A stretch of 64,000 nucleotides of DNA from Dictyostelium discoideum (lineage: Eukaryota). Positions 7,826-61,811 of this stretch are shown piece after piece (within the stretch, counting starts at the first letter, position 1; each line of letters starts with the position of its first letter). Location: positions 2,336,001 to 2,400,000 of the forward strand of contig CM000153.2 of assembly GCA_000004695.1 (NCBI GenBank). The letters run 5' to 3'. The position numbers were made by a program, and so were the translations under genes. The notes below the pieces were generated by a model. That model was not told the origin of the DNA. It searched no databases and saw nothing but the letters and a program-made list of their open reading frames with translations.

Positions 7826-9747
7826 ATGAATTCATTTTTAGCTCGTGTTGGTTCATTAGGAAATATATTTAAATCTAAATCATTTTCACAACAATTTAGG
7901 AAAAATTTAAAGAATGAAAGTTATTATAAAAAAGTTAAAAGTAGTTGGATGAATGCAACTCAAAAACTCTTTAAATTAGATGAACCAACAAAAGGAAACA
8001 ATGTTACAATCTTTTTTACAGGTGATGAAATGTTTAGACATATGTGGGGTTGTATTAAAAGTGTAAAAATTTAAATTAATTATTAAAAAAAAAAAAAATA
8101 ATAAAAAATGTCACAAATAGAAAACTAAAAATACAAATTTTATTTTATTTTTAATTTTTCTATTAGGCAAAAGAATCAATTTATTTAGAAACATATACAA
8201 TTGAACCAGATTTAATTGGTAATAAAACCATTGAATTATTGACAGAAGCACAAAGAAGAGGTGTTCAAGTTAAATTTGCATATGATTCAATTGGTAGTTC
8301 AGGATTATCAGATTTTGATATTTATGAAATGAGAGTTTCCGGTGTTGATATCTATCAATTCAATCCGGTTGAAATTAGTTCAATATTACCATACACATTA
8401 AGAAATCATAGAAAGATTATAGTTGTTGATGAAAAGTATGGTTTTTGTGGTGGTATGAATATATCTGGTAAATATGCTTCATCAAATATGGATGGTGGTA
8501 AAGATTATTTCCGTGATACTCATTGTATGATTGAAGGACCTGCCGTTAAAAATCTTTTAAATATTTTTCATGATTCTGTTAAAGATAAAAGAATCATTGA
8601 AAAACCAGTAAATAAAATTGGTTCACCTGCTTTACTAGCTCTACATTTTCCATATGCATCTGAAATGGATTCCAAAATATATAAAAAACCAATTTATGAA
8701 TTAAATGAAGAATTTAAAGAATCAATTGAAAATAATAATCAATATATAAATAATAATGATAATAATAATTATAAAGATAAAGAACTTGATGATGAATATG
8801 AAGATGAAGATGATACATTTAATGATATAACTCAATCAACATATTATCATTATCAACCACCAATAAATAGTACAAATTATACAAATAATAATAAAATAAG
8901 GCAAAATGAAAAGAATTTAATAAAATTAGAAACACAACAACAATTTTTAAAAGATGAAGATTTAACTGAATTTACAATTGAAGATGATGATGATGATGAA
9001 GAAGGAGAGGATGATGATGAAAATGAAGATGAATTTAAAGAATTTGTATCATTAACAAGTGAATATAAAAATTTAGAGAATTTAAATAAATTAAATGATT
9101 ATTTGAATGATGAATCAAATATAAATCTAAATAATGGTAATGGTAGTGGTAGTAAAAAGATTGAAATAGTTCAATCAAAGACTATTTCAAATGCAGTTGT
9201 TCAAGTTCAACAATCAAATCAGTTTAGAAATAAAAGGGAGATTCAAAAAGCATTATTAATTGCATTGAATAAGTCGTATGATCATTGTTATTTCACTACA
9301 CCTTATTTTTTACCACCAAGAAAATTAAGAAAGGCAATTGTTAATGCCGCAAAACGTGGTGTTGATGTAAAGATTATTACGGCTGGAAAAAGTGATGTCC
9401 CTTGGTTCCGTAATGCTTCGAGATATATTTATCCACTTTTTTTAAAACATGAAAAAATTAAAATTTATGAATTGGAATCAATCACTTTACATGCGAAAAC
9501 TTTATCAATTGATGGTATGTATTCAACAATTGGAAGTTACAATTTGGATACCTGGTCTCAAAGAAATCTCGAAGCGAATCTCGCCTTCTTTAGTCCAAAT
9601 GTCGTAAAAGTTTTAGAAGATCAATTTAAAAATGATCTCAAATCCTGTAGCGAAGTAACCTTAAAAGATATTGGTAACCGTCCATTTTTAGATCGTTTAA
9701 TTTGTTTTTTCGCTTTCCAAATGAGTAAAATTTTAAAACCAACGTAA
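7826..9747 (+). CDS. PLD-superfamily (2x HKD) bacterial-type cardiolipin synthase-like protein, 2 exons
   Basis: Exon 1 is 7826..8062 and exon 2 is 8167..9747. The intron 8063..8166 has a GTAAAA donor and TTTCTATTAG acceptor, phase 0. HKD motif 1 is HRKIIVVDEKYGFCGGMNISGKY and HKD motif 2 is HAKTLSIDGMYSTIGSYNLD. The N-terminal repeat (AKESIYLETYTIEPD) is typical of Cls. A long acidic/Asn-rich insert lies between the two catalytic halves. The basic, amphipathic N-terminus (MNSFLARVGSLGNIFKSKSF) is consistent with a mitochondrial presequence. Confidence 0.75.
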
Positions 9748-10925: not shown

Positions 10926-13635
<2,710 letters not shown>

Positions 13636-14366
13636 ATAATTATTTATGCAAATAACAATGTGTTATATATATTTATTAAAGTAACAAGTAAAAAAAAGTA
13701 TAGAAAACAATTATAAAAAAAAAAAATCAAAAAAAAAATTAAAAAAAAAAAAAATCAAAAAACAGATAACAAAACAGCTCCCAGGAATAACAATATAATA
13801 TGATTATTAGTAATAGTGATCTGTATGTTGAATATAGGTAATTGTTTGAATTACAAAAATTAAATAAAAATTAAATTAGAATAAAAAAAAAAAAAAAATG
13901 CTTATCAATGTAATAGTCAAATAAAATAAGAAATTCTAGGAATATTGAATTTTAAAAATAGATTTCTATTATCTCCAAAATACCTTTTTTTTTTTTTTAT
14001 TCTTTGTGGTAAAATAAAAATAAAACAAATATTTATAATATTATATTATTACTTTTAACTGGAATTTAAAAATTGGAAGCCTTAATTTGGATCAACAGTA
14101 CCATCATTATGAGGTGTATTACTGAGTTATTGAAAAAAAACTATTATCTTGTGATCGACAGTGATTCGATTTTAAAAATAAAGAAAATAAAAAAAAAAAT
14201 TGGCCAAACAGCAGATGAAATTAGTCAATAAAATAACCTGGATTTAAAATCAATTTTTTTTTTTTTGTTTTCTTATTAAATTCTAAAAAATTAAAAAAAA
14301 AAACTAAATTTGATATTTTAACATTTTTATTTTTTTTTTTTTTATTTTTTTTTCTAATTTTGCTTT

Positions 14367-14413: not shown

Positions 14414-14435
14414 ATGGACACTTTTGGAAATAAGG

Positions 14436-14474
<39 letters not shown>

Positions 14475-14735
14475 GCAACAAAGATATTGATAATACAATT
14501 GAATCAAAATTAACATTAACACCCTCTCCTTCAACTCCAGAAAAAATAGTATCAACAGTAACAACTGCAGTAGCCAAACCAAAAAAAGAATTAAAGAATT
14601 TAGTATTATACAAGCTAATTGATATAAATAGTGCAAAATGTTATTTTAAATATCAAAATATTAGAAAAGATATTGAATTATTTATAAATAAAGATGATGA
14701 GCCATCATTTAGAATTCTACTTGAAAATAATGCCG

Positions 14736-14766
<31 letters not shown>

Positions 14767-15711
14767 TAATAAGTTTATTATTGAACAAAGTGCAACCACT
14801 CTATTGAAATCATATTTAAAGTTAGAAAAACCAATAAAAGGAAATAGTTATGTTTATATCAATGATAAGAAAATTGATGATTACTCTTTTGATTTTCTTA
14901 TATCTGCTACCAGTACCACCACTGCCACAACAACAACAACAAACACCACACCACAATCTAGTAACAAAACAATACCATCTACACCAGTGTCAGTATCAAC
15001 CTCAACCGAAAAAGCTAATCAACTCAATTCTACACCAGGTATTGATCAAACTCCATATAGAGAAATTAATGATCATAAATTAATAAAAAAAGTTATAATT
15101 AAAGAAAATACTCAAAAAGAAGTAGAAGTAGAAGAAGAGTATCAATTCATTAAGAAATCATCACCATCATTGAAACAACATATTCAAATTAAAGAAGAAG
15201 AAGAAGAAGAAGAAGAAAAAGAATTAATTATAGAGAATGCAAAAATAAAACCATCAGGTGTTGGTAGATTCTTTCATTTCGGATGTGAAAGATATTTATC
15301 ATTTTCAAGTAGACAAACTTATAAAGAGAATGATCCAATTAAATCAATTCAAAGTCCAATTTCATCTGTTCAACAGAAACTAATTGATGATGGTTTCATT
15401 TGGGAGGATAAAGTTTTAAAGTATTTACAAGATGAAAATGATATTAAAAATCCTAAATATAGAATATTTAAACCTGAAAATGGTCAAGCAGATTTATCAA
15501 TCTCTGAAACTATTAGAATTTTAAAAGATGAAAAAGTAGATTCAACCCCATTCTATATGATTCAATCAACACTTGAACCACCAAAATCATTTAGAAGAAA
15601 TTTACCTGACTCAATTAAATTTTCAATTTCAAAGCCTGATTTCTTATTAATTTCAAAAAAGAGTACTTATGACGATGATGGTGATGGTAATAAATCAAAT
15701 ACTACAACAGC

Positions 15712-15746
<35 letters not shown>

Positions 15747-18700
15747 CGGCAACAATTAGAGAAATTGAAATTCAAGATGCAAAATCAACAACAGTTATTG
15801 CATTCCATCAAAAGATTCAATTAGCATTCTATTCATTGTTATTGAATGACATTATTAAAGAATTTGGTATTAAAGATTTAGTAGTGTCAGATAGAGCTGG
15901 TATTTATTTAAAAGGTAATTTTAATGTTGAATATTTTTCATTAAAGGATTCAATTAAAATACTTGAAAGTTTTTTATTTGGTGATTCTATTAAAAAGAGA
16001 TCATATCTTTTAGATATCCTTTCAACACCAAAAGAAAAATCTCCTTGGATTCTTAGTGAAAGATGTGATGGTTGTGAATTTATAAACTATTGTACAAATC
16101 AATATGAAAATGAAAAAACTTTAAATTCTTCTGTAAATATAAAATCTTCATCATTATTAAATTTAATTAAACAAGAAAATGAAAAAGAAAAAGAAAAAGA
16201 AAAAGAAAAAGAAAAAGAAAAAGAAAAAGAAAAAGAAAAAGAAAAAGAAAAAGAAAAAGAAAAAGAAAATGAAAATGAAAAAACAAATCAATTAGAATTT
16301 TTAATGAAAATCGATAAAGAATCAATTAAAAATTTAGCACAAAGAGTTGATTTTATTAAATCTTTACCAATGATTGAAGCATCACTAACTGATAAAGTTG
16401 TACCAACTGGTTTATTCGATATTAGATTATCTTCATATGAAGATATTCAAGTTTATTTAGAAATTATACATAATCCAATTAATCAATCAATTTACCAATG
16501 GGGTGTTTTAGTTGTTGATAATACTATCACACCACCATCACCATCATCAAATAAATTTGCAAAAGGAAATGATTTCATTGAATTGGTTATGGGTTTATCA
16601 GTGATTTTCAACCAATATCATAAATCGAAATTATCATTACAATGTTATATATTTGATTCATTCCAAAAATCATTATTCTTTAAACAATGTTTTAAATTAT
16701 TAAAAGATATTAATAATAATAATAATAACATTAATAATAATGAAATTGAATTACATAAAGAATCAATTCTTTTAGTATTAAGAACTTTATTACATAGTAA
16801 TGAATGGATTAATTTAAATATTGGTCATTTTCCACAATGTAATGTACCTTTAAATTGGACATTATCAGATAGACAAGATGAATATTCTTTCTTGGTTATT
16901 AAAGATTTAATTAAAACTTCATTTGCTATAAATGTTAAACCATTTTATACATTTAATAATATTGTAAAGAAATTATTATCACCTTCATCAAATGCTAATG
17001 GTGATGAAGATGATGATGGTGATGAAATATTTAAATTAATAATTAATAATGAAGATTGTTCAAATATTATTGAAAATAAATTACATAAACAATTAGAATT
17101 AATTAATTATTTAAAATTAGTTGTATTTAAAGGTGAAGATTTAAAAGAAGTAAAGAAAGCAAACCAATTCTTAATTAGAGACAAATCAATTTATAATGAT
17201 AATAAATTATTAGCAAAATTATTTTATTGTTATCAAAATGAATGTATTTCATCATATAGAAAATTAAAACAAATTAGATCAAATCCATTAGAAATTAATT
17301 TATTGGAAGGAACATTCTACAAATTAAAACTATTATCAATTGAAGCAAATGGTGAAAAGAAATTTAGATTAACATTTTCAACCGATATAAACATTCAAAA
17401 TTATCAAAGATTTGAACATATCATTGATAAATCATTCTCAAGTTTTGCTTTAATTCAATTATCAAACTATAAACATATATGGTCTTTAAATGAAATTTTA
17501 TCAACTTCTTCAGATTTAAAAAATCAATTCATTGAATCAATTCCATCAATTCATTCACATTATATCATTAACAAATCAATTGATTTAATTTCAGTTTCAT
17601 TAGTTTTTGATGTTTCTTCAAATGTTAAATTTTTAAACAATATGTATGTATAAAATAAAAAATAAAATAAAATAATAATAATAATAATAAATCAATACTA
17701 ATATTAATAAATATTTATTTATTTATTTAAAAGTGGTGAAGAATTTTTATTTTTTGAAAAATATGATATTGGTTACTTTTCAATGCATAGAAGTTTATTA
17801 AAATCGTATGATGAAATGAATAAATCATCAATATTTTTAGATATATTAAATGACCCAAAGAAATGGTGTACCGAGAATATTGATAATGATTTTAAGAGAT
17901 TAACTGATCAAGTGATTGAATCATTTAAAGATATTAGTGGTATTAATCCAAATACTAAATTAGTGATGACAACTTCTCAACAATTAATATTCGATTCAAT
18001 CATTAAAAAGAGAATGCAATTAGTAAGAGGTCCACCAGGTACTGGTAAAACTCATTTCTTAGCATTGGTAGTATTAATATTTATGGAATCATTCAAGAGA
18101 AAAGAAAAACCATTTAGAATTGCTATAACTTCATTTACACATAATGCAATCGATAATTTGCTATTAAGAATTTCAGCATTAAAAAAAGAATATTCAATTT
18201 CTGTTGGTCAAGATATTAATTTCCCATTATTTAAAAAACAATCATCCAAATTAACTGATGAATTCAAAGATAATGATATTAAATTATTCGATAAAAAAGA
18301 TTTAACAAATCGTAATCATCTTTGTGTTGGTGCTACAAGTTGGTCATTATCAACATTGGATTATAATGATTTCGATTTATTAATCATTGATGAAGCTTCT
18401 CAATTAAGTAGTTTTATTGGCTCTATACCATTCCAAAGATTAAATAAAGAAACTGGTAAAATTATAATTTGTGGTGATAATAAACAATTAGGTCCAGTTT
18501 TAAATGACTCATATCCAAATAGAAAAGAATTAAATTGTAATCAAAATCAAAATCAAAATCAAAATAATAATAATGATAATCCAAAATTACATAAATCAGT
18601 TTTCTCTTGTATTAAATCTCATCTAATTGCAAATAATATTAAAAATCCATATTTATCACTTTATGAAAACTTTAGAATGAATAATCAACTTTGTAAATTC

Positions 18701-19423
18701 TCTCAAAATCTTTATGGTAAACTTTATCAATGCTTTAAAGAGAATCAAGAATCAATAACACCTTTATCATTTGATAAAGATGATTTAAATAATCAATTGA
18801 TTGAATCAATTTTCAATAATGATTTATCATGTCATACAATCCTATTAGATGATTCACAATTTGGTGATAAAATATTAGAAGCCAACATTGTTAAACAAAT
18901 TTATAAATTCTTAAGAAAAGAATATTCAAAAAGATTAATTAATAATAATAATAATGAAGAAATAAATGATGAACAAATTAAAGAAGATAAATTTTGGAGA
19001 AAAGATTTAATACTTGGTGTAATTACACCACTTCATATTCAAAGAAATACAATTATTCCAATGATAAATCGTGTACAAATTAATGAATTAAATCTTGAAG
19101 CAACTGTAAAACCAATTGTAAATACAGTTGAAGTTACACAAGGTAAAGAATTTGAAAATGTAATTCTATGTTATAATGGTTTTGATGATCTTAATCGTAT
19201 CTCTGAATTTAGTTTTGACCTTAATCGTTTAAATGTTGGTTTCACTCGTTCAAAGAAAAGATTCATCTTAATAGTTTCCTCAAAATTATTCTTCCCTGAT
19301 GAATCAATCTTTGATAACAAAAGAATGTCTTTAGCTTATAATCATTTAATTAAATATATTGAATATTCAAAAATTCATCAATTTTATTCCTCACAAATTA
19401 AAAATGATAATAATATTATTAAA

Positions 19424-19481
<58 letters not shown>

Positions 19482-19543
19482 TAAATGACAATAATTTAAT
19501 CGATAAATTTAATAACAGTTTGGTGTTCGAGGATAAAAAATGA
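14414..19543 (+). CDS. dna2: DNA2-type nuclease-helicase (RecB-like PD-(D/E)xK nuclease with Fe-S cluster plus SF1 helicase), 2 exons, about 1665 aa
   Basis: The supplied ORFs 14414..17653 and 17783..19543 are joined by a 90-nt intron 17644..17733 (GTATGT...AAAAG) with phase-2 continuity (..FLNN-I-GEEFLFFEKYDIGYFSMHRSLL..). Nuclease features are FHFGCERY (first Cys), PDFLLISKK, EIEIQDAKS, a QhxxY motif (QLAFYSLLL), and a CX2CX5C motif (CDGCEFINYC) downstream of them. Helicase features are a Walker A GPPGTGKTH, ITSFTHNAIDNLLLRI (compare human DNA2 TSYTHSAVDNILLKL), LLIIDEASQLS and ICGDNKQLGPV. Confidence 0.75.
16195..16268 (+). repeat. (AAAGAA/GAAAAA)n hexanucleotide microsatellite encoding a (KE)n run inside the DNA2-like CDS
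   Basis: A direct read shows about 12 perfect hexamer copies in frame. Confidence 0.9.
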
Positions 19544-26419: not shown

Positions 26420-29400
26420 TTATTTTACTAATGGTAAACGATCATAAGATAAAATTGAAGATAACCATCTTTCAGCTTCTTCTTTGGTGATTTGTTTTCT
26501 TGATGCATAAGATTCGATTTGTTCTTTAGTGATTTTACCAACAGAGAAATATTTAGCATGTTCATGAGAGAAATAAACACCACAAACTGCAGCACCAGGT
26601 AACATTGCCATATGATCGGTTAATTCGATAGAGGTATTTTCATTTACATTCATTAATGACCAAATGGTTTTCATTTCAGTATGATCTGGTTGAGCTGGAT
26701 AACCTGGAGCTGGACGAATACCTTTATATTTAATTTTGAATAAATCTTCATTTGATAATGCTTGATCCTTTTCATAGGCCCAATGTTCTCTTCTAACATC
26801 TTCGTGAACAGCTTCTGCCAATGCCTCTGCTAAACGATCAGCCAATGCTTTAGCCATGATACTTGAGTAATCGTCATTCTCTTTTTTATATTTTTCAACC
26901 ATATCTTCTAAACCAAAACCAGAACTAACAGCGAATAAACCAATGTAATCCTTTACACCCGATGAAACTGGTGCGATATAATCACCGATGGCAATGTATG
27001 GTTCATCAGTTTCCTTTTCATTTTGTTGACGAAGACCAAAGAGTGTTGCAATTGGTTTGGAACGAGTTTCATCATCATTATGATCGTAGATTATAATATC
27101 CTCATCGATACTATTAGCAGGGTAGAAACCAATTACACCACGAGCATTTAAAAGTTTCTTATCGACAATTTCCTTCAACATGGTTTGAGCATCATCAAAG
27201 AGTTTCTTTGCTTCGGCACCAACGGTTTCATCATTGAAAATACGTGGATAACCACGATTTGGATATTTACCACGTAATTGCCAAGTTACAAAGAATGGAT
27301 TCCAATCGATTTTAGTGACTAATTTCTCCAAGGAATACTCTTTGAAAACTTGAGTACCAAGGAATGTTGGTTTAACAGGTTGAATGGTTTTCCAATTAAC
27401 TTTAACACAATGTTGACGTGCTTTCTCTAAAGAAGTATATTTTCTATCCTTTAGTGAAGCATAATGTTTCTCACGAAGTTCTGCGTATTGCTGTGAAACA
27501 TCCTCTGCGAAAACTTCTTTATTATTTGGATCTAACAATGATTGAACTACAGTTACACTACGTGATGCATCTAAAACATGAACGGTTGGTTGAGAATAGT
27601 GTGGTGAAATCTTAACTGCTGTGTGAATTTGTGAGGTAGTGGCACCACCAATCATTAATGGGATTTTGAATTTAAGTCTTTCCAATTCACTTGCTACATA
27701 AATCATCTCGTCCAATGATGGAGTGATTAAACCTGATAAACCTACAACATCGGCTTTGTTGGCAATGATGGCCTCTACAATCTTTTCACATGGTGTCATA
27801 ACACCAATATCAATGACTTTGTAATTGTTACAACCCAATACAACACCAACGATATTCTTACCGATATCATGTACATCACCTTTAACAGTTGCCAAAACAA
27901 CGACACCGGCATTATCTGGTTCATCTTCTGCTGCTTCATCGTTACCTTTCTCTAAACGTTTTAATCTTTTCTCTTCCTCCATGAATGGAATTAAATGAGC
28001 TACAGCTTTTTTCATAACACGAGCACTCTTGATAACTTGTGGAAGAAACATTTTACCAGCACCAAATAAATCACCAACAACATTCATACCACCCATTAAT
28101 GGGCCTTCAATGACAGATAATGATGATGGTAATGTGTTACGTGCCTCTTCGGTATCTTCAATGATATAAGTGGTGATACCTTTAACCAAAGCATGAGCGA
28201 TTCTTTCAGACACTGGTTTATTTCTCCATTCTTCTACTTCAACATTTGCTTTCTCTGATTTATTATTGGCTTGAGCGTATTCTAATAGTTTTTCAGTTGC
28301 ATCATTGGTACGATTTAAAATTGCATCCTCTACTAATTTCAAAAGATCCTTTGGAATATCATCATAGATTGGTAATGCACCAGCATTAACGATACCCATA
28401 TCCATACCGGCGGCAATTGCATAGTAAAGGAAAGCACTGTGCATAGCTTCACGCAATGGTTCGTTACCACGGAATGAGAAGGAAAGATTAGAAACACCAC
28501 CACTTACACGAGTTAATGGCATCAATGCTTTGATCTCTCTAGTGGCCTCAATGAATTCTACACCATAGTTATTATGTTCTTCTAAACCTGTTGCAATTGT
28601 TAAGATATTTGGATCGAAAATGATATCTTGTGGATAGAAACCAACTTGCTCTGTTAGGATCTTGTATGAACGATAACAAATTCTAACTTTCTCTTCTTTG
28701 CTTGTAGCTTGACCATTTTCATCGAATGCCATAACAACAACGGATGCACCATATTGTTTAACGATTTTAGCTTGTTTAATGAACAATTCTTCACCAACCT
28801 TCAAAGAGATTGAATTGACAATACACTTGCCTTGAACACATTTTAAACCTGCCTCTACAACATCGAAATTACTAGAATCCAACATGATTGGTACCTTTGA
28901 AATCTCTGGTTCTGAGCCAATGAAGAATAAAAACTTTTGAATGGCTGCAACTGCATCAATCATACCTTCATCCATATTGATATCAATGATTTGTGCACCA
29001 GCTTCAACTTGTTGACGAGCAACTGATAATGCCTCTTCGTATTTATTGGCTTTGATTAAATTTGCGAAACGTCTTGAACCAGATACATTACAACGTTCAC
29101 CAACATTTACAAAATTTAATTCCTTTGTGAATACCAATGGCTCCAAACCAGAGAGTGTAGTATTTGGAACAAGTGTTGGAATGGCACGTGGTGCGATACC
29201 CTCAATGGCATTGCAGAATGCACGAATGTGATCTGGAGATGTACCACAACAACCACCTACAATATTTAATAAACCAGACTCGGCAAACTCCTTAATTTGC
29301 TCTGCCATCATCTCTGGTGTTTCATCGTAACCACCAAATGTATTTGGCAAACCTGCATTTGGATAACATGAAACGTAGCATTCTGAACACTTTGAAATAT

Positions 29401-30026
29401 TTTGAAGGAATGGTCTCATCTCTTGAGCACCCAATGCACAATTCAAACCGAATACCATAAGATTTGCACTTGCAACACTTGTATAGAATGCCTCACCTGT
29501 TTGACCACTCAATGTTCTACCACTCTTATCTACGATAGTACCTGAAACGAATACTGGTAATCTTGGTGAATATGTCTTGAAGAATTCCTCAATTGCGAAT
29601 AATGCTGCTTTACAATTGAGTGAATCGAAAACTGTCTCCACCAAAATCACATCAATACCACCCTCAACCAATGCTTCAACCTGTTCGAGATAACCACTTA
29701 CCAATTCATCGAATAATACATTTCTTGCTTCTGGTCTTTCGACTGATGGTGAAATCGAAGCTGTCTTATTGGTTGGACCAACTGCACCACAAACAAATCT
29801 TGGTCTACTTGGATCCTTCTTTGTATACTCTTCACATGCACTCTTGGCTAATCTTGCTGATTCAATATTAATTCTTTTAACTAAATGTTCCATCTTATAA
29901 TCTGCTTGTGAAAATATATTACCATTAAATGTATTGGTTTCAATAAAATCTGCACCTGCTTCAAGATATTTCTAATGAATCAATTATTATAAAAATATAT
30001 TTATATTAATTTATTATTATTTATTA

Positions 30027-33309: not shown

Positions 33310-35160
33310 ATGAAACTCAATAAAAGTTTAATCGCAATATTATTATTATGTTTTGTGTTATTTGTTAATATAAATGTGTCCAATGGGCAAGATAGTTCGG
33401 TAGCACAATCGGAAAACCCTACTCCTTCAAGTTCCGAACAACAAGTAGTACCATCATCACAAGAAGATCAAACAGCTTCATCAGCTGTTCCCGAACAAAC
33501 TGACTCACAACAACAAGAAGCACCAGCTCAATCATCAGCTGCCCCATCAACTGATTCACAACAAGCTCCAACAGAATCAACTGAAGCCCCAACTCAATCA
33601 TCAGTCGAACAACCAGCACCAACAGAATCAACTGAAACACCAGCCCAATCATCAGCTGCTGAACAACAAGCACCAGCAGAATCAACTGAAGCCCCAGCTC
33701 AATCATCAGCTGCTGAACAACAAGCACCAGCAGAATCAACTGAAGCCCCAGCTCAATCATCAGCTGCTGAACAACAAGCACCAGCAGAATCAACTGAAGC
33801 CCCAGCTCAATCATCAGCTGCTGAACAACAAGCACCAGCAGAATCAACTGAAGCTCCAGCTCAATCATCAGCTGCCGAACAACAAGCACCAGCAGAATCA
33901 ACTGAAGCCCCAGCTCAATCATCAGCTGCTGAACAACAAGCACCAGCAGAATCAAATGAAGCACCAGCTCAATCATCAGCTGCCGAACAATCAGCAGAAT
34001 CAAATGAAGCACCAGCTCAATCATCAGCTGCTGAACAACAAGCACCAGCAGAATCAAATGAAGCTCCAGCTCAATCATCAGCTGCCGAACAACCAGCAGA
34101 ATCAAATGAAGCACCAGCTCAATCATCCTCAACTGTAGAACAACCACCAGCTGAATCATCAGCTGCACCAGAAGCAACAGAAGTTCCAGCTGAATCTGCT
34201 GAACAACCAACTGAATCATCAAATGCTGAACAACAACAAACTGACTCACAACAACCAACTCAATCATCAGGTGAAGAACAACAACAACCAACTGATTCAC
34301 AACAACAACCAACTGATTCACAACAACAAACAACTGATTCACAACAACAACAAACATCAGAATCATCAAATCCAACCCAATCATCAGGTGAACAACAACC
34401 AACCGAATCATCAAATGCTGAACAACCAACTGATTCACAACAACCACCAGCAGAATCATCATCAGCCCCAGAAGCAACTGAATCTCCAGAACAATCAGGT
34501 GAAGAACAACCAACTGAATCACAACAAGAAACATCTGCTTCACCAACTGAAGAAAATCAAACATCTTCAACAGAAGAACAACAACAACCAGCCGATTCAA
34601 CCGCCTCTGTAGAACAACCAGCCGAAACATCATCATCACAACAAACCTCAGAAGCACCAGCTCAATCAAATGAGCAACCAACTGAATCATCTGCCTCTTC
34701 TAATCCAACTGAATCATCATCTGCTACTCCAACTGAATCATCCACAGCTCCAACTGAATCATCTGCCACACCAGCTGAATCATCAACTGCCACATCAGAA
34801 TCATCTGAAGAAACCGTTGTAAAACCAGCCTCTGGAGAAGATGGTTCAGAAGCCATTGAATCAGGAGAAACTGAAACATCAGAAGAATCAATTGAATCAG
34901 AAGAAACTGAAACATCAAATTCTGAAACAAGTCCAGCAATTTCCAAATCACCAATCAACTCTGATCCAACTCTTCCAAATATTAATGAATTTTCTGACGA
35001 TGAAAAAGCCTCACAAAAAGGTGGAAAACAAAATAAATTACATTCAAGTACAGAAGAAACTTCTGATGAAACATCATCCCATAGTGATTCATCAAACTTA
35101 AAATCAAATAGTATATTCACAATTGTAGCTGTATCATCGATTATCTATTTAATTTTGTAA
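33310..35160 (+). CDS. Secreted mucin-like Ser/Thr/Pro/Gln/Glu-rich protein with a 60-bp (20-aa) minisatellite and a hydrophobic C-terminus (GPI or TM)
   Basis: The signal peptide is MKLNKSLIAILLLCFVLFVNINVSNG. The array 33650-34110 holds about 9 near-identical units of AEQQAPAESTEAPAQSSA. Degenerate PTES/TDSQQQ repeats follow. The C-terminal tail is IFTIVAVSSIIYLIL. Confidence 0.7.
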   Translation: MKLNKSLIAILLLCFVLFVNINVSNGQDSSVAQSENPTPSSSEQQVVPSSQEDQTASSAVPEQTDSQQQEAPAQSSAAPSTDSQQAPTESTEAPTQSSVEQPAPTESTETPAQSSAAEQQAPAESTEAPAQSSAAEQQAPAESTEAPAQSSAAEQQAPAESTEAPAQSSAAEQQAPAESTEAPAQSSAAEQQAPAESTEAPAQSSAAEQQAPAESNEAPAQSSAAEQSAESNEAPAQSSAAEQQAPAESNEAPAQSSAAEQPAESNEAPAQSSSTVEQPPAESSAAPEATEVPAESAEQPTESSNAEQQQTDSQQPTQSSGEEQQQPTDSQQQPTDSQQQTTDSQQQQTSESSNPTQSSGEQQPTESSNAEQPTDSQQPPAESSSAPEATESPEQSGEEQPTESQQETSASPTEENQTSSTEEQQQPADSTASVEQPAETSSSQQTSEAPAQSNEQPTESSASSNPTESSSATPTESSTAPTESSATPAESSTATSESSEETVVKPASGEDGSEAIESGETETSEESIESEETETSNSETSPAISKSPINSDPTLPNINEFSDDEKASQKGGKQNKLHSSTEETSDETSSHSDSSNLKSNSIFTIVAVSSIIYLIL

Positions 35161-37103: not shown

Positions 37104-38095
37104 TTACATCAATGAGCAAGCTCCATCATTGGTTAATTCACCCTTTAAATTGTTTTCTATAGATTGGGGTGGTGGTGGTGGTGGTGCTGAAATTTCACCA
37201 CTTTTTTTTGTACTATTGCTGTAGTTGTTGTTGTTATTATTGTTATTGTTATTAGATGATGAATTTTCAATAATTTTTTTTTTTAAGGGGTCCAATTTCT
37301 TTAAAATATTATTTGTAGCATTACCAATACTAGAATATGTTGTATTGGTGTTATTATTAGTTGTATTATTATTATTTACAGTTTTTAAAGATTTTGGAGA
37401 TTTTGGAGGTTCTTGGTTTTTAACTTGTTGGAGTTGATCATGTTTCATTTGTTGTTGTTTTTTTATTGCTAAATGATTTTGTCCTTCTGTATTTAAAAGA
37501 TGGAATGAGTTACTTCTTCTCTTTGGTTGATTGCTTTGTTGTTGTTGTTGCTGCTTTGATTGACTATCTTTTTTATTTACATTATCATTATTATTACTAT
37601 TACTATTATTACAATTATTAATGGTGGTGTTGGTACCAAAATTATTACCACTACTAGTTAAAGTTGGAGAATAATTTCCATTTGGAATTCTAAAAGATTC
37701 AATAATTAATGGATTTTCATAAGCTATTTGTTTTAAATCTTCAAATGATATTCTCTCTTTTGCATCATTTATGAAATCTTCTTTCTTTTGAAAATAACCG
37801 GATTTAACTTCATTTGGATAATCCTTTAGAAATGGTTCGAAATAAATGAAATGAACATGGTCAATTAATTCTCTTAATTCACTTCTATTGATGAAATCTT
37901 TATGTTCAATTGCAAATAATTTAAATATAAATGTTAACTTTTGATCTATATTACCATGTGATAATGTTGATAATGATTCAACCAATTCTTTAAAATTTAA
38001 AAGATTATCATCATCTTTATCCATTAATTTAAACATTCTATCCAATAAATTATTGTTTTTATTTTCATTGTTATTATTATTGCTATTATTATTGC

Positions 38096-38162
<67 letters not shown>

Positions 38163-39772
38163 ATTTAAATTCCAATTCCAGTCAGGTAAAAATCTTAAAA
38201 TTAATTGTTGAAATTGTAAGAAACCAATACCAGTACCATCAGTTGATAAATATTCAAATTCTTCTTTTAAATCTTTTAATTTCTCTAAATCGAATTTAGT
38301 TGATTTTAGTAGATAACGAAGATCATTATCTTCTTCTTTTTGTTTAACTTGTTTCTTTGTAATTTCCCAATGTTTTGATTTTAAATCTTGAATTCTCTTT
38401 TTAGAGAGTACAATACCAATTCTTTTATAGGAATTTTCAATTGTTTTGAAAAGGTCAGGATTAAATGGTCTACCCGATAGAATATCAGTTACTTGACCAT
38501 GATTCTTTGCCAACATCAATGAATTTAAATTCATTTCAATTAAACCTAATGCAATCTCTAATAGTACTCTACTACCTCTAATAATGAAATTATCCCAAAT
38601 TATTAATGCACATTGTGCAGGTAATGATACTGTAAATAAACATAAAAACCATTCCATTGATAATACTGGTATAATGGCTCCAATATTCTTTAAATGTTGA
38701 TTCAATTCTGGAAATATCTCTTCCATTAAATCTAATAATACATTTTGATCAACTTGACTTCCTAACATTGTCTTTGTATAATAATCTGTAAGTAATTGAT
38801 CTGTAATATGTGATAAACACCAAAACACTTGCTCCTCTATATATACATATATATATATATAAATATACAAATATATATATATAAATAAATATAATTTATT
38901 ACTATTAATAATTATTAATTTTAAAATTATAAATTATAAATTATAATACAAACCATTTTCAATAATCATTAATAAAAAAAAAGTTATATAATTTAAAGAT
39001 TGACAATAACCAACAGTTGTTGTTTCACTAAAAACAAATAAAATTCTTTTTAATTTATCTTTAAATTCTGGATCTAATGATTTTGGATGTGTTGGAAATG
39101 TTCTCTCTAAATCCTATAAAAATTGAAAAAATTAAAAATATATTAGAATAATATTATAAAATCAATCTATTAATAATAATAAATAAATAAAAAACATACT
39201 GATAAAATTTCATTTTTATATTTTAAATTATTTATATTAGATTTACTACTAGTACTATTAAAAGATTCTGTTGATGTTGATAATATTAAATCATTATAAC
39301 TTGAATTCTTTGGCATTGTTGTTGATGTTGATGTTGATGTTGTTGAATATGGTGATGATGGTGTTGAAAATATTTGGAGATCAGTTAAATCATTTGATAA
39401 TTCATCTAGATTGAAATTTTCATTTTTTAATAATGACCAATAATAACCTTTTTTAAAATCTAAATTATAACAATCCAAGAATATTGTCCAAATTGATTTA
39501 CGATATTTTGGATGAATACCATGTGATAATAGTTCTCTAAATGATTCTTCATGTGAATATCTTTTTAAGTATCTAAATATATCCTCTTCTGTATGACATG
39601 TAGTTTGAATATAGTGTGTCCATTCTTCTAATCTTTCATCTTCATTCTTTTTTTGTTGTTTTAATTCTTTAATTAATTCTGAATTCTCTGAATACCTATA
39701 CTCAAATCCATATTCATCTATAAATATATCTTGATCAATTATAATATCTGTATCTTCTTCAAATGTTTCCAT
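37104..39772 (-). CDS. TBC-domain Rab GTPase-activating protein with a C-terminal EF-hand-like pair, 3 exons, about 821 aa
   Basis: Exons are 39200..39772, 38954..39113 and 37104..38836. Donors are GTATGT and GTTTGT. The Arg-finger motif is DLERTFPTHP and the Gln-finger YxQ motif is VGYCQSLNYI. Further TBC matches are LSMEWFLCLFTVSLP and IWDNF. The EF-like region is FKELVESLSTLSHGNIDQKLTFIFKLFAIEHKDFINRSELRELIDHV. The poly-Asn run is encoded by (AAT)n. Confidence 0.7.
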
Positions 39773-52565: not shown

Positions 52566-53651
52566 ATGTCTTTATCTTTGGGTGATATCAAATTTCCAGA
52601 TAATTGGGATTTAATTCCAAATGAAAAAAATTACATTGATTATGTTTACAAGGAATCAATTGAATTAGAAGTATGGAGACCAAATAATAAAAGAGATTTA
52701 ATGGCACATAATAATGTTGTAAGTTTGGCTAAATATTTCTGGCCACATGTTGATTTCAATAGATTAGTAATGGGTGGAGAATTAATGGTATGGTTCTTTT
52801 CATTTGATGATGTTCTTGATGCTGGTATCTACACTGATGAAAAACAAATGGATTTGGTGAAAAGAATGGATAATGTGTTTATTAATGGTACTGTTGAGTC
52901 TGATGCAACTGGTCCAGAGAAGATGGCTCTCCACCTTAGAAAGAAATGTGAAGTAATGTGTGGCAAAAGAAGAAAGGATACCTTCAACCGTTTCATCTCT
53001 TCATGTGTCCAATGGGTCGATTCAATTATTCCATTCAATAAACTTCGTTCAGCTCAAGGCACATCCCCACATTTAGAATTATACTCATACTTGAGAAAAG
53101 TTAATATCGGTGCATATCCATGTGTCACTCTTACTGAAGTAATGTTAGATCATGAAATTGAATATTACATTTGGTCAGACCCAAAATGGATCAAAATGAA
53201 CGAAGACATCGCCATCATCACCACCTTAATCAATGATTTAGTATCCTATGAAAAAGAAGTCAATGATCAAGCAGGTGACTTGAATCCATTATACTTCCTC
53301 CAAAATCAAAAGAATATTCCATTACCAGATTCTTACAAACAAGTGGTTGATCTCATTGATTTCTGGGTAAAAGATTACCAAACCATGGAACAAAGTCTCT
53401 TAAATGAAATGGAATTTAAAGATTCAAAACAAAGAAGTGATATGGAATTCATATTGGAACATCTTCGTTATTTAGCTAGTGGTTCAAAGAAATGGTCAAT
53501 GCAAACACCTCGTTATTGCTCTCCAACTTCTCCATTCATTGAAATGAGAACTAAACCATCAACTCCAGTTATGAATTCTACAAAAAAACAAAAAATTGAT
53601 CATGTTCCATCTCAATCATTTATTTCAACACCAATTGATTTAAATAATTAA
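52566..53651 (+). CDS. Microbial-type class I terpene synthase
   Basis: This is a single 361-aa ORF. The metal-binding DDxxD motif is [10 protein letters not shown]. The NSE/DTE triad is NDLVSYEKE. The overall size and helical composition match the Dictyostelium and fungal terpene synthase family. Confidence 0.75.

Positions 53652-58560: not shown

Positions 58561-61811
<3,251 letters not shown>

Follow-up and report, generated by a model that had tools for sequence, protein, structure and literature searches.

Gene structure at the locus

The stretch of Dictyostelium discoideum DNA considered here (contig CM000153.2, positions 2,336,001–2,400,000, forward strand), hereafter the window, comprises 64,000 nucleotides (nt), whose own numbering is used throughout; with a GC content of 22.6% and its poly-Gln, poly-Asn and poly-Thr tracts it is typical of Dictyostelium. 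Its plus strand carries, at 14414–19543, a gene consisting of two exons separated by a single 90-nt intron and closed by a TGA stop codon (19541–19543), which with good confidence can be said to encode a 1679-residue member of the Bad (“bacterial DNA2-like”) family of helicase-nucleases.

In the uninterrupted DNA this gene appears as two open reading frames (ORFs). ORF1 (14414–17653, 1079 codons) ends with the residues ...KFLNNMYV and a TAA stop at 17651–17653, and a GTATGT hexamer lies just before this stop, at 17644–17649; ORF2 (17783–19543, 586 codons) starts 129 nt after ORF1. A sequence-only reading had proposed that the two ORFs are halves of one gene, joined through a 90-nt GTATGT...AG intron, and both proposals hold. 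Excision of 17644–17733, whose last two bases are an AG (17732–17733), splits an Ile codon (AT/T) and yields a coding sequence of 5040 nt free of internal stops, in which the spliced junction reads ...KFLNN/IGEEFLFFEKYDIGYFSMHRS and the ATG of ORF2 becomes an internal Met codon. Exon 1 (plus strand, 14414–17643) thus supplies codons 1–1076 and the first two bases of Ile1077, the predicted spliceosomal intron (plus strand, 17644–17733; GTATGT...TTTAAAAG) is of phase 2, and exon 2 (plus strand, 17734–19543) opens with 49 nt (17734–17782) whose conserved residues precede the ORF2 ATG. The intron has a GC content of 5.6%, values within the interval ranging from 3 to 7% as against ~20–25% on both flanks and ~23% in the exons. 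Three GT..AG pairs of the region restore the frame without introducing a stop, and 17644–17733 alone among them retains IGEEFLFFEKYDIGYF, the 16 residues encoded by the 49 nt in front of the ORF2 ATG, which align with IGNEFILFEVFDLGFF in D. purpureum and with equivalent residues in other dictyostelids.

The comparison with other species gives the same picture. The orthologous gene annotated in D. purpureum (locus L001) has an intron of 67 nt (9062–9128) at ...FNDK/IGNEF, that is in the same Ile codon and in the same phase. Nine full-length dictyostelid orthologues of 1558–1821 residues, from hosts including D. purpureum, Tieghemostelium lacteum, Polysphondylium violaceum, Cavenderia, Acytostelium, Synstelium and Heterostelium, run without a break through the junction and are collinear over 94–98% of the protein. 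The order phospholipase D (8239–9747), SIN1/RIP3-like gene (10926–13650) and Bad-like gene (14414–19543) is likewise conserved in D. purpureum (L001, 1–10881). Finally, in an AlphaFold model of D. purpureum residues 700–1545 (mean predicted local distance difference test, pLDDT, 82.8), the junction falls between model positions 297 and 298, flanked by strands 279–288 and 301–307 of the β-rich segment that precedes the helicase; judging from the list of secondary-structure elements, the strands on either side may belong to one and the same sheet. Because the nine orthologues are unbroken at the junction, the D. purpureum intron occupies the same site, the gene order is shared and the junction is surrounded by modelled strands, four lines of comparative evidence indicate that ORF1 and ORF2 are one gene, a structure with which the gene models in use probably agree, as that of D. 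purpureum does.

The alternative that two genes are present, the first encoding a nuclease/central-domain protein ending at 17653 and the second a separate helicase initiated at the ATG at 17783, could draw on the integrity of both ORFs, on the ATG with which ORF2 opens and on the existence of bacteria in which nuclease and helicase are encoded as split genes (PMC5704561). It has to contend, however, with a gap of just 129 nt, with the 49 nt before this ATG, which code for residues conserved in all orthologues, with the occurrence of both the dictyostelid orthologues and the bacterial relatives as single polypeptides, with the D. purpureum intron at the identical site and with the β-strands that directly flank the split in the model; it is accordingly given almost no weight. 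A second intron, of 71 nt, is present in the D. purpureum orthologue (L001, 8703–8773, KLNS/IEPNK), at a place where the window ORF is continuous (~17380); the comparison of the two sequences shows that an intron has been gained or lost between two dictyostelids of group 4.

Domains of the encoded protein

The first 277 residues (plus strand, 14414–15244) form an N-terminal extension that dictyostelid orthologues share and bacterial Bad lacks; it contains poly-Asn/Thr tracts and one conserved block of ~100 residues with the pattern KPKKxLKNL...FIxEQSATTLxKxYL...GNxYxYI. No Pfam match was found for it; speculatively, it may provide a eukaryote-specific targeting function.

The extension is followed by a nuclease domain of the PD-(D/E)xK class with a predicted iron–sulphur (Fe-S) “iron staple” (residues 278–565; plus strand, 15245–16108). 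Its key residues are C291, E331 (motif I, GFIWE331), Q384, D409 (motif II, SKPD409FLLI), D455 and K457 (motif III, IEIQD455AK457ST), Q469 and Y473 (the QhxxY motif, Q469LAFY473) and C551, C554 and C560. The last three belong to the CX2CX5C element C551DGC554EFINYC560 (plus strand, 16064–16093), which accounts for three of the four predicted Fe-S ligands, its cysteines corresponding to C239, C242 and C248 of P0054, a Bad-family protein dealt with below. The RecB-type nuclease motifs and the cysteines, CX2CX5C included, had been recognized in the earlier reading, and each of them does occupy an invariant or near-invariant column in an alignment of 40 amoebozoan and bacterial relatives. The AlphaFold model made for the window protein, which covers the exon-1 residues 270–1076, confidently displays a Cas4-like nuclease fold and then a fold resembling RNase H and the DEDD exonucleases. 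Foldseek agrees weakly (Cas4 with an E-value of 1.8e-3, and weak RNase H matches), and the Pfam families Cas_Cas4 and PDDEXK_1 give weak matches only (E 0.05–0.09). From its conserved motifs the N-terminal half of the protein can thus be described as a RecB/Cas4-type nuclease with a predicted Fe-S cluster.

Two low-complexity tracts lacking in the orthologues are found in this part of the protein, namely an 18-residue Thr/Ala tract (plus strand, 15701–15754), located in a loop of the nuclease domain that is predicted to be disordered (model pLDDT<50), and a perfect, species-specific (Glu-Lys)14 repeat (plus strand, 16181–16264) in the linker that connects the nuclease with the central domain.

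Between nuclease and helicase lie three segments, two of which form the central region; the first (residues ~674–839; plus strand, 16433–16930) has the RNase H/DEDD 3′–5′-exonuclease-like fold, its structural matches including the DEDD/RNase H-like 3′–5′ exonucleases TREX1 and RNase T. The alignment indicates that the position of the Exo I DxE motif on strand β1 is not conserved, VYLEIIHNP being found in the window protein and LTxQ in the bacterial consensus, while an Exo II-like motif is mostly retained (SLQxYIFD/SLQxYVFD); the window protein has no match to PF13482. Judging from these sequences, the exonuclease-like module is probably non-catalytic and would probably serve for DNA binding or as a scaffold. 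The second segment (residues ~840–969; plus strand, 16931–17320) is helical and conserved with Bad. The third, a β-rich pre-helicase domain (residues ~970–1090; plus strand, 17321–17773), is the one whose DNA is interrupted by the intron, so that its last strand, EFLFFEK, comes from exon 2; it aligns with Bad residues 596–800, and its strands are those of the model.

The helicase core (residues ~1150–1600; plus strand, 17951–19303) is of the Upf1-like superfamily 1B (SF1B) type, as seen from matches in Pfam, in the PDB and with Foldseek. Walker A and DEASQ, noticed in the earlier reading as signs of an SF1 helicase in the second ORF, turn out to be part of a complete set of SF1B motifs I–VI, all on the plus strand: Walker A at 18029–18052 (GPPGTGK1182T), Ia at 18128–18172 (TSFTHNAIDNLLLRI / TSFTHNAIDNLL), DEASQ at 18389–18403 (D1296EASQ), III at 18473–18499 (GDNKQLGPV), V at 19118–19153 (VNTVEVTQGKEF) and VI at 19229–19261 (LNVGFTR1582). 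The only Pfam families found on the window protein are AAA_11 and AAA_12 (residues 1158–1592), and Foldseek gives nearly the same score to Sen1 (1.1e-21), DNA2 (2.7e-21) and Upf1 (3.5e-21) when queried with the helicase half. The Upf1-like SF1B helicases Upf1/Nam7, Sen1/SETX and IGHMBP2 are indeed alike in core fold and motifs and give comparable scores; unlike the window protein, however, they are helicases of RNA or RNA/DNA and carry no Fe-S nuclease at the N-terminus. Since all catalytic residues are kept in conserved columns, both halves of the window protein look catalytically competent as far as this can be read from the alignment.

Membership of a known defence system was also considered and rejected, the matches of the defence models (PADLOC and NCBIfam: DpdJ, MkoA, PLuB, ProA, Hhe) being limited to the helicase core.

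Kinship with Bad, DNA2 and the TM0106 proteins

A word-indexed search for homologues, in which 8000 candidates were scored, had been dominated by low complexity and had given 5 matches. An exhaustive profile search, made with residues 270–1076 aligned with four orthologues against 1.84 billion representative sequences, yielded 384 relatives, which after the dictyostelids are mostly proteins of ~1250 residues with the same layout, named “bifunctional RecB family nuclease/DEAD/DEAH box helicase” by NCBI. The characterized protein to be compared with these is Bad of G. stearothermophilus (Wilkinson et al., NAR 2020), which has 1245 residues, with D150 in motif III and K815 in Walker A; it contains an Fe-S cluster, is an ATPase dependent on single-stranded DNA and a 5′–3′ translocase and helicase, and acts as a single-stranded DNA endonuclease with a preference for 5′ flaps (PMC7430649). 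The relative P0054 has 1245 residues, D150 and the Walker lysine K815, the values published for Bad, and its 90% cluster includes ACJ33552.1 of Anoxybacillus flavithermus WK1, which is named Bad in Supplementary Figure 1 of PMC7430649; P0054 is recognized as Bad through these two residues, its length and this accession rather than through a direct comparison with the Bad sequence.

The window protein and P0054 are collinear. BLASTP aligns residues 932–1622 of the former with 596–1222 of the latter (27.5% identity, E 2.7e-47) and residues 280–567 with 6–255 (E 1e-14), residues 932–1160 facing Bad 596–800. When the dictyostelid and bacterial alignments are compared with each other by hhalign, a probability of 100% and an E-value of 4e-116 are obtained over 1179 columns (276–1555 against 4–1243); in the exhaustive profile search, positions up to ~650 of the profile align with P0054 residues 4–650. 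D455 and K1182 coincide with Bad D150 and K815, respectively, both in invariant columns. Thus, window protein and Bad have the same three-part architecture over their full length (Fe-S nuclease, central domain and SF1B helicase), with corresponding nuclease motifs and four cysteines and with homologous central domains. The differences are that the window protein is eukaryotic (Amoebozoa), is encoded by an intron-containing gene and is longer by ~430 residues, which consist of the N-terminal extension of ~275 residues and the Thr, Glu-Lys and Asn tracts; the identity between the two is only ~23–27%.

The sequence-only reading had identified the gene as DNA2, that is, as the canonical Dictyostelium orthologue enlarged by low-complexity insertions. 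To be sure, the order of nuclease and SF1B helicase and the C...CX2CX5C pattern are those of DNA2, the UniRef name of the orthologues is “DNA2/NAM7 helicase-like”, and mouse DNA2 is the top match in the PDB, both for the single sequence (E 4.8e-12) and for the five-orthologue profile (1.8e-19). However, only helicase residues are aligned in these PDB matches, and Nam7/Upf1 follows closely in the profile search (8.7e-16); since Upf1 and Sen1 score equally, the SF1B helicase motifs are not diagnostic of DNA2. In fact, the helicase 1A domain of the window protein scores higher against Bad (96 bits) than against mouse DNA2 (58.5 bits), and in a neighbour-joining (NJ) tree of this domain (171 columns), in which DNA2 is represented by fragments only, DNA2 is monophyletic in 100 of 100 replicates with the window protein outside that clade. 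As to the nuclease, the Pfam Dna2 family (PF08696), which is specific to the nuclease region of DNA2 and is carried by a genuine DNA2 fragment (P0207), gives no match at E<=1 in the window protein and four dictyostelid orthologues (0/5), nor in further relatives. The N-terminal part, whose alignment with the DNA2 nuclease domain had been suggested as a check, escapes detection by sequence profile, and its sequence does not align with that domain, even though both belong to the same fold class. Between nuclease and helicase, moreover, there are ~400 conserved residues, with the RNase H-like fold and the helices, which DNA2 (mouse structures 5EAN/5EAW) does not have; according to the authors who described Bad, no eukaryotic DNA2 possesses the central domain of that protein (PMC7430649).

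In the earlier reading the protein was described as strongly Asn-expanded and as about 1.5 times the size of human DNA2. The abundance of Asn is real (189 of 1679 residues), but it is not the main cause of the length, most of the excess being due, as the alignments indicate, to a real additional domain and to the dictyostelid-specific N-terminal extension of ~275 residues, with Asn expansion contributing only a part. The additional domain, being conserved, folded and common to Bad, is not a low-complexity insertion. On this comparative evidence the DNA2 label is not supported, and that the gene should be the canonical DNA2 orthologue after all appears unlikely.

A number of points nevertheless weigh against the assignment to the Bad family or against parts of it. 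DNA2 is, after all, the best single sequence match in the PDB, and in the helicase-1A tree a grouping of DNA2 with Dictyostelia occurs in 31 of 100 bootstraps and is thus not firmly excluded. A search with a 162-residue fragment of mouse DNA2 returned only fragments of <300 residues, with neither a full-length DNA2 of any species nor a dictyostelid DNA2; an exact look-up in the protein collection retrieved neither the joined protein nor the product of either ORF, whereas close orthologues did come back, so that absence from this collection does not amount to biological absence, and the literature offered nothing usable on a Dictyostelium dna2 gene identifier. Since the nucleases of DNA2, Cas4 and Bad are homologous, the architecture may still be called “DNA2-like”. 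Furthermore, splicing is deduced from conservation, the inactivity of the exonuclease-like domain from an alignment and not from a structural superposition of active sites, and the function from the properties of a single bacterial enzyme with ~25% identity.

A further kinship concerns the TM0106 proteins (TIGR03491, with PF13482, RNase_H_2), which also combine a Cas4-like nuclease with an RNase H-like domain and in some cases add the same helicase; in P0005, a metagenomic relative, a RecB-like nuclease of the TM0106 family (6e-39) is fused to it. The D. purpureum protein has a weak NCBIfam match to TM0106 (E 0.0017). Against the TIGR03491 cut-off of 97.45 bits the relative P0001 reaches 17.4 bits, and the window protein gives no match. 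The window protein differs from the TM0106 and Cas4 proteins in remaining below this cut-off and in having no PF13482, no Exo I DxE and no CRISPR context. The RNase H-like fold of its central region explains the link with the TM0106 proteins, in which PF13482 is found at the same place, and the first part of the central domain, left unassigned in 2020 by those who described Bad, would on the strength of the model be given a fold class.

Ancestry, genomic setting and possible role

In the literature consulted, the Bad family is described only for bacteria and archaea. Outside Dictyostelia, amoebozoan relatives of the window protein were found in Rhizamoeba saxonica and Pelomyxa schiedti, in addition to one metagenomic protein. 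In a full-length NJ tree (1176 columns) the amoebozoan sequences are separated from the bacterial ones in 100 of 100 replicates, and the branching of the dictyostelids follows the species groups; for these two reasons the tree indicates an old, vertical inheritance within Amoebozoa, with the reservation that long-branch effects are possible in an NJ analysis. The opposite view, namely that the locus harbours a bacterial gene in decay or recently transferred, a pseudogene or contaminant devoid of conserved eukaryotic function, is consistent with the fact that the closest relatives outside Amoebozoa are bacterial and archaeal. It is hardly compatible, however, with a gene that has the 23% GC of its host, Asn/Thr tracts and a spliceosomal intron, that is syntenic in D. 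purpureum, that is present in nine dictyostelids along the lines of the species groups as well as in Rhizamoeba and Pelomyxa, and that has kept all its catalytic residues; this possibility must be regarded as very improbable.

Bad genes of prokaryotes often lie beside a Type III-like DNA methyltransferase, whereas no adjacent methyltransferase is evident at the window gene, which is preceded by the SIN1-like gene and followed by a small ORF. A genome scan detected full-length Bad members in Methanoculleus, a genus on the list of the Bad authors, and in several bacterial metagenome-assembled genomes; the at least about six full-length loci, with their heterogeneous neighbours, are too few for a test of the methyltransferase association. 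A methyltransferase stands beside the Bad gene in locus L006 and none in L002, L003 and L005, L007 being partly sampled. In L006 (1077–3767, 9745–10890) the Bad-like gene has a ResIII/TnsA-like gene on one side and an N6/N4 DNA methylase on the other, in L003 (3257–6004, 9814–11661, 11805–14273) it is situated amid a UvrD-Cas4 fusion, a NERD-UvrD gene and RecQ, and the remaining loci have unrelated neighbours. The bacterial contexts hint at a possible defence or repair island, in a sample too small for a judgement.

As to the rest of the window, the SIN1/RIP3-like protein encoded at 10926–13650 (plus strand) has CRIM and Raf-like RBD domains and very long poly-Gln tracts, and its gene appears to run past the end of the ORF through two short AT-rich GT..AG introns, one at ~13302–13391 and the other starting at ~13513. 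Further downstream there are a complete, five-domain, cobalamin-dependent methionine synthase of the MetH type (26420–29893, minus strand, 1157 residues), a RabGAP-TBC protein ORF (37104–38870, minus strand), an ORF for a terpene synthase (family 2, C-terminal metal-binding domain; 52566–53651, plus strand) and a coatomer β ORF (59902–61683). Two overlapping ORFs on opposite strands (33310–35160, plus, 616 residues; 33419–34690, minus, 423 residues) have no Pfam match and probably represent one low-complexity repeat region read both ways.

By homology with Bad, a mode of action can be envisaged for the protein encoded by the window gene, in which the N-terminal extension would be followed by the Cys4 Fe-S nuclease of the Cas4/AddB/DNA2 class, the central region, the β-rich pre-helicase domain and the Upf1-like SF1B motor. 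The cluster, if the biochemistry of Bad and the structures of DNA2 are taken as a guide, would staple the nuclease; the enzyme would load on a free 5′ single-stranded end or flap and thread onto the strand, along which the motor would move 5′→3′ with ATP (Walker K1182, DEASQ) with the nuclease leading, and the latter would cut the single strand endonucleolytically, D455 taking the part of Bad D150. By this analogy, the cellular role could be DNA repair, flap processing or the degradation of foreign DNA.

A broader proposal, whose chances of being right or wrong we judge to be evenly balanced, is that the Amoebozoa (Dictyostelia, Tubulinea and Archamoebae) possess a vertically inherited eukaryotic branch of Bad whose central domain, once called “completely unknown”, would open with a degenerate DEDD/RNase H-like exonuclease fold linking Bad to the TM0106 proteins with nuclease, RNase H and helicase. 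This branch could go back to an ancient acquisition from bacteria by a bacterivorous lineage or could be a relic of the prokaryotic stock of DNA2, and its members, side by side with a canonical DNA2, may deal with DNA that is foreign or damaged.

What could be the significance of these findings? In part they amount to an annotation correction, since the two ORFs should be merged and the product should inherit neither the DNA2 name nor the corresponding Gene Ontology terms (Okazaki-fragment processing, end resection); the gene represents a eukaryotic branch of a known family, which is modestly new, and not a new kind of system. Two further consequences can be envisaged: the RNase H-like assignment of the first part of the central domain constitutes a testable structural hypothesis, and, Dictyostelium being genetically tractable, the conserved homologue present there could be knocked out to learn what this class of enzymes does, Bad having been studied only in vitro and from one thermophile. 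Finally, the amoebozoan distribution of the family bears on the origin of the nuclease-helicase fusions of the DNA2 type.

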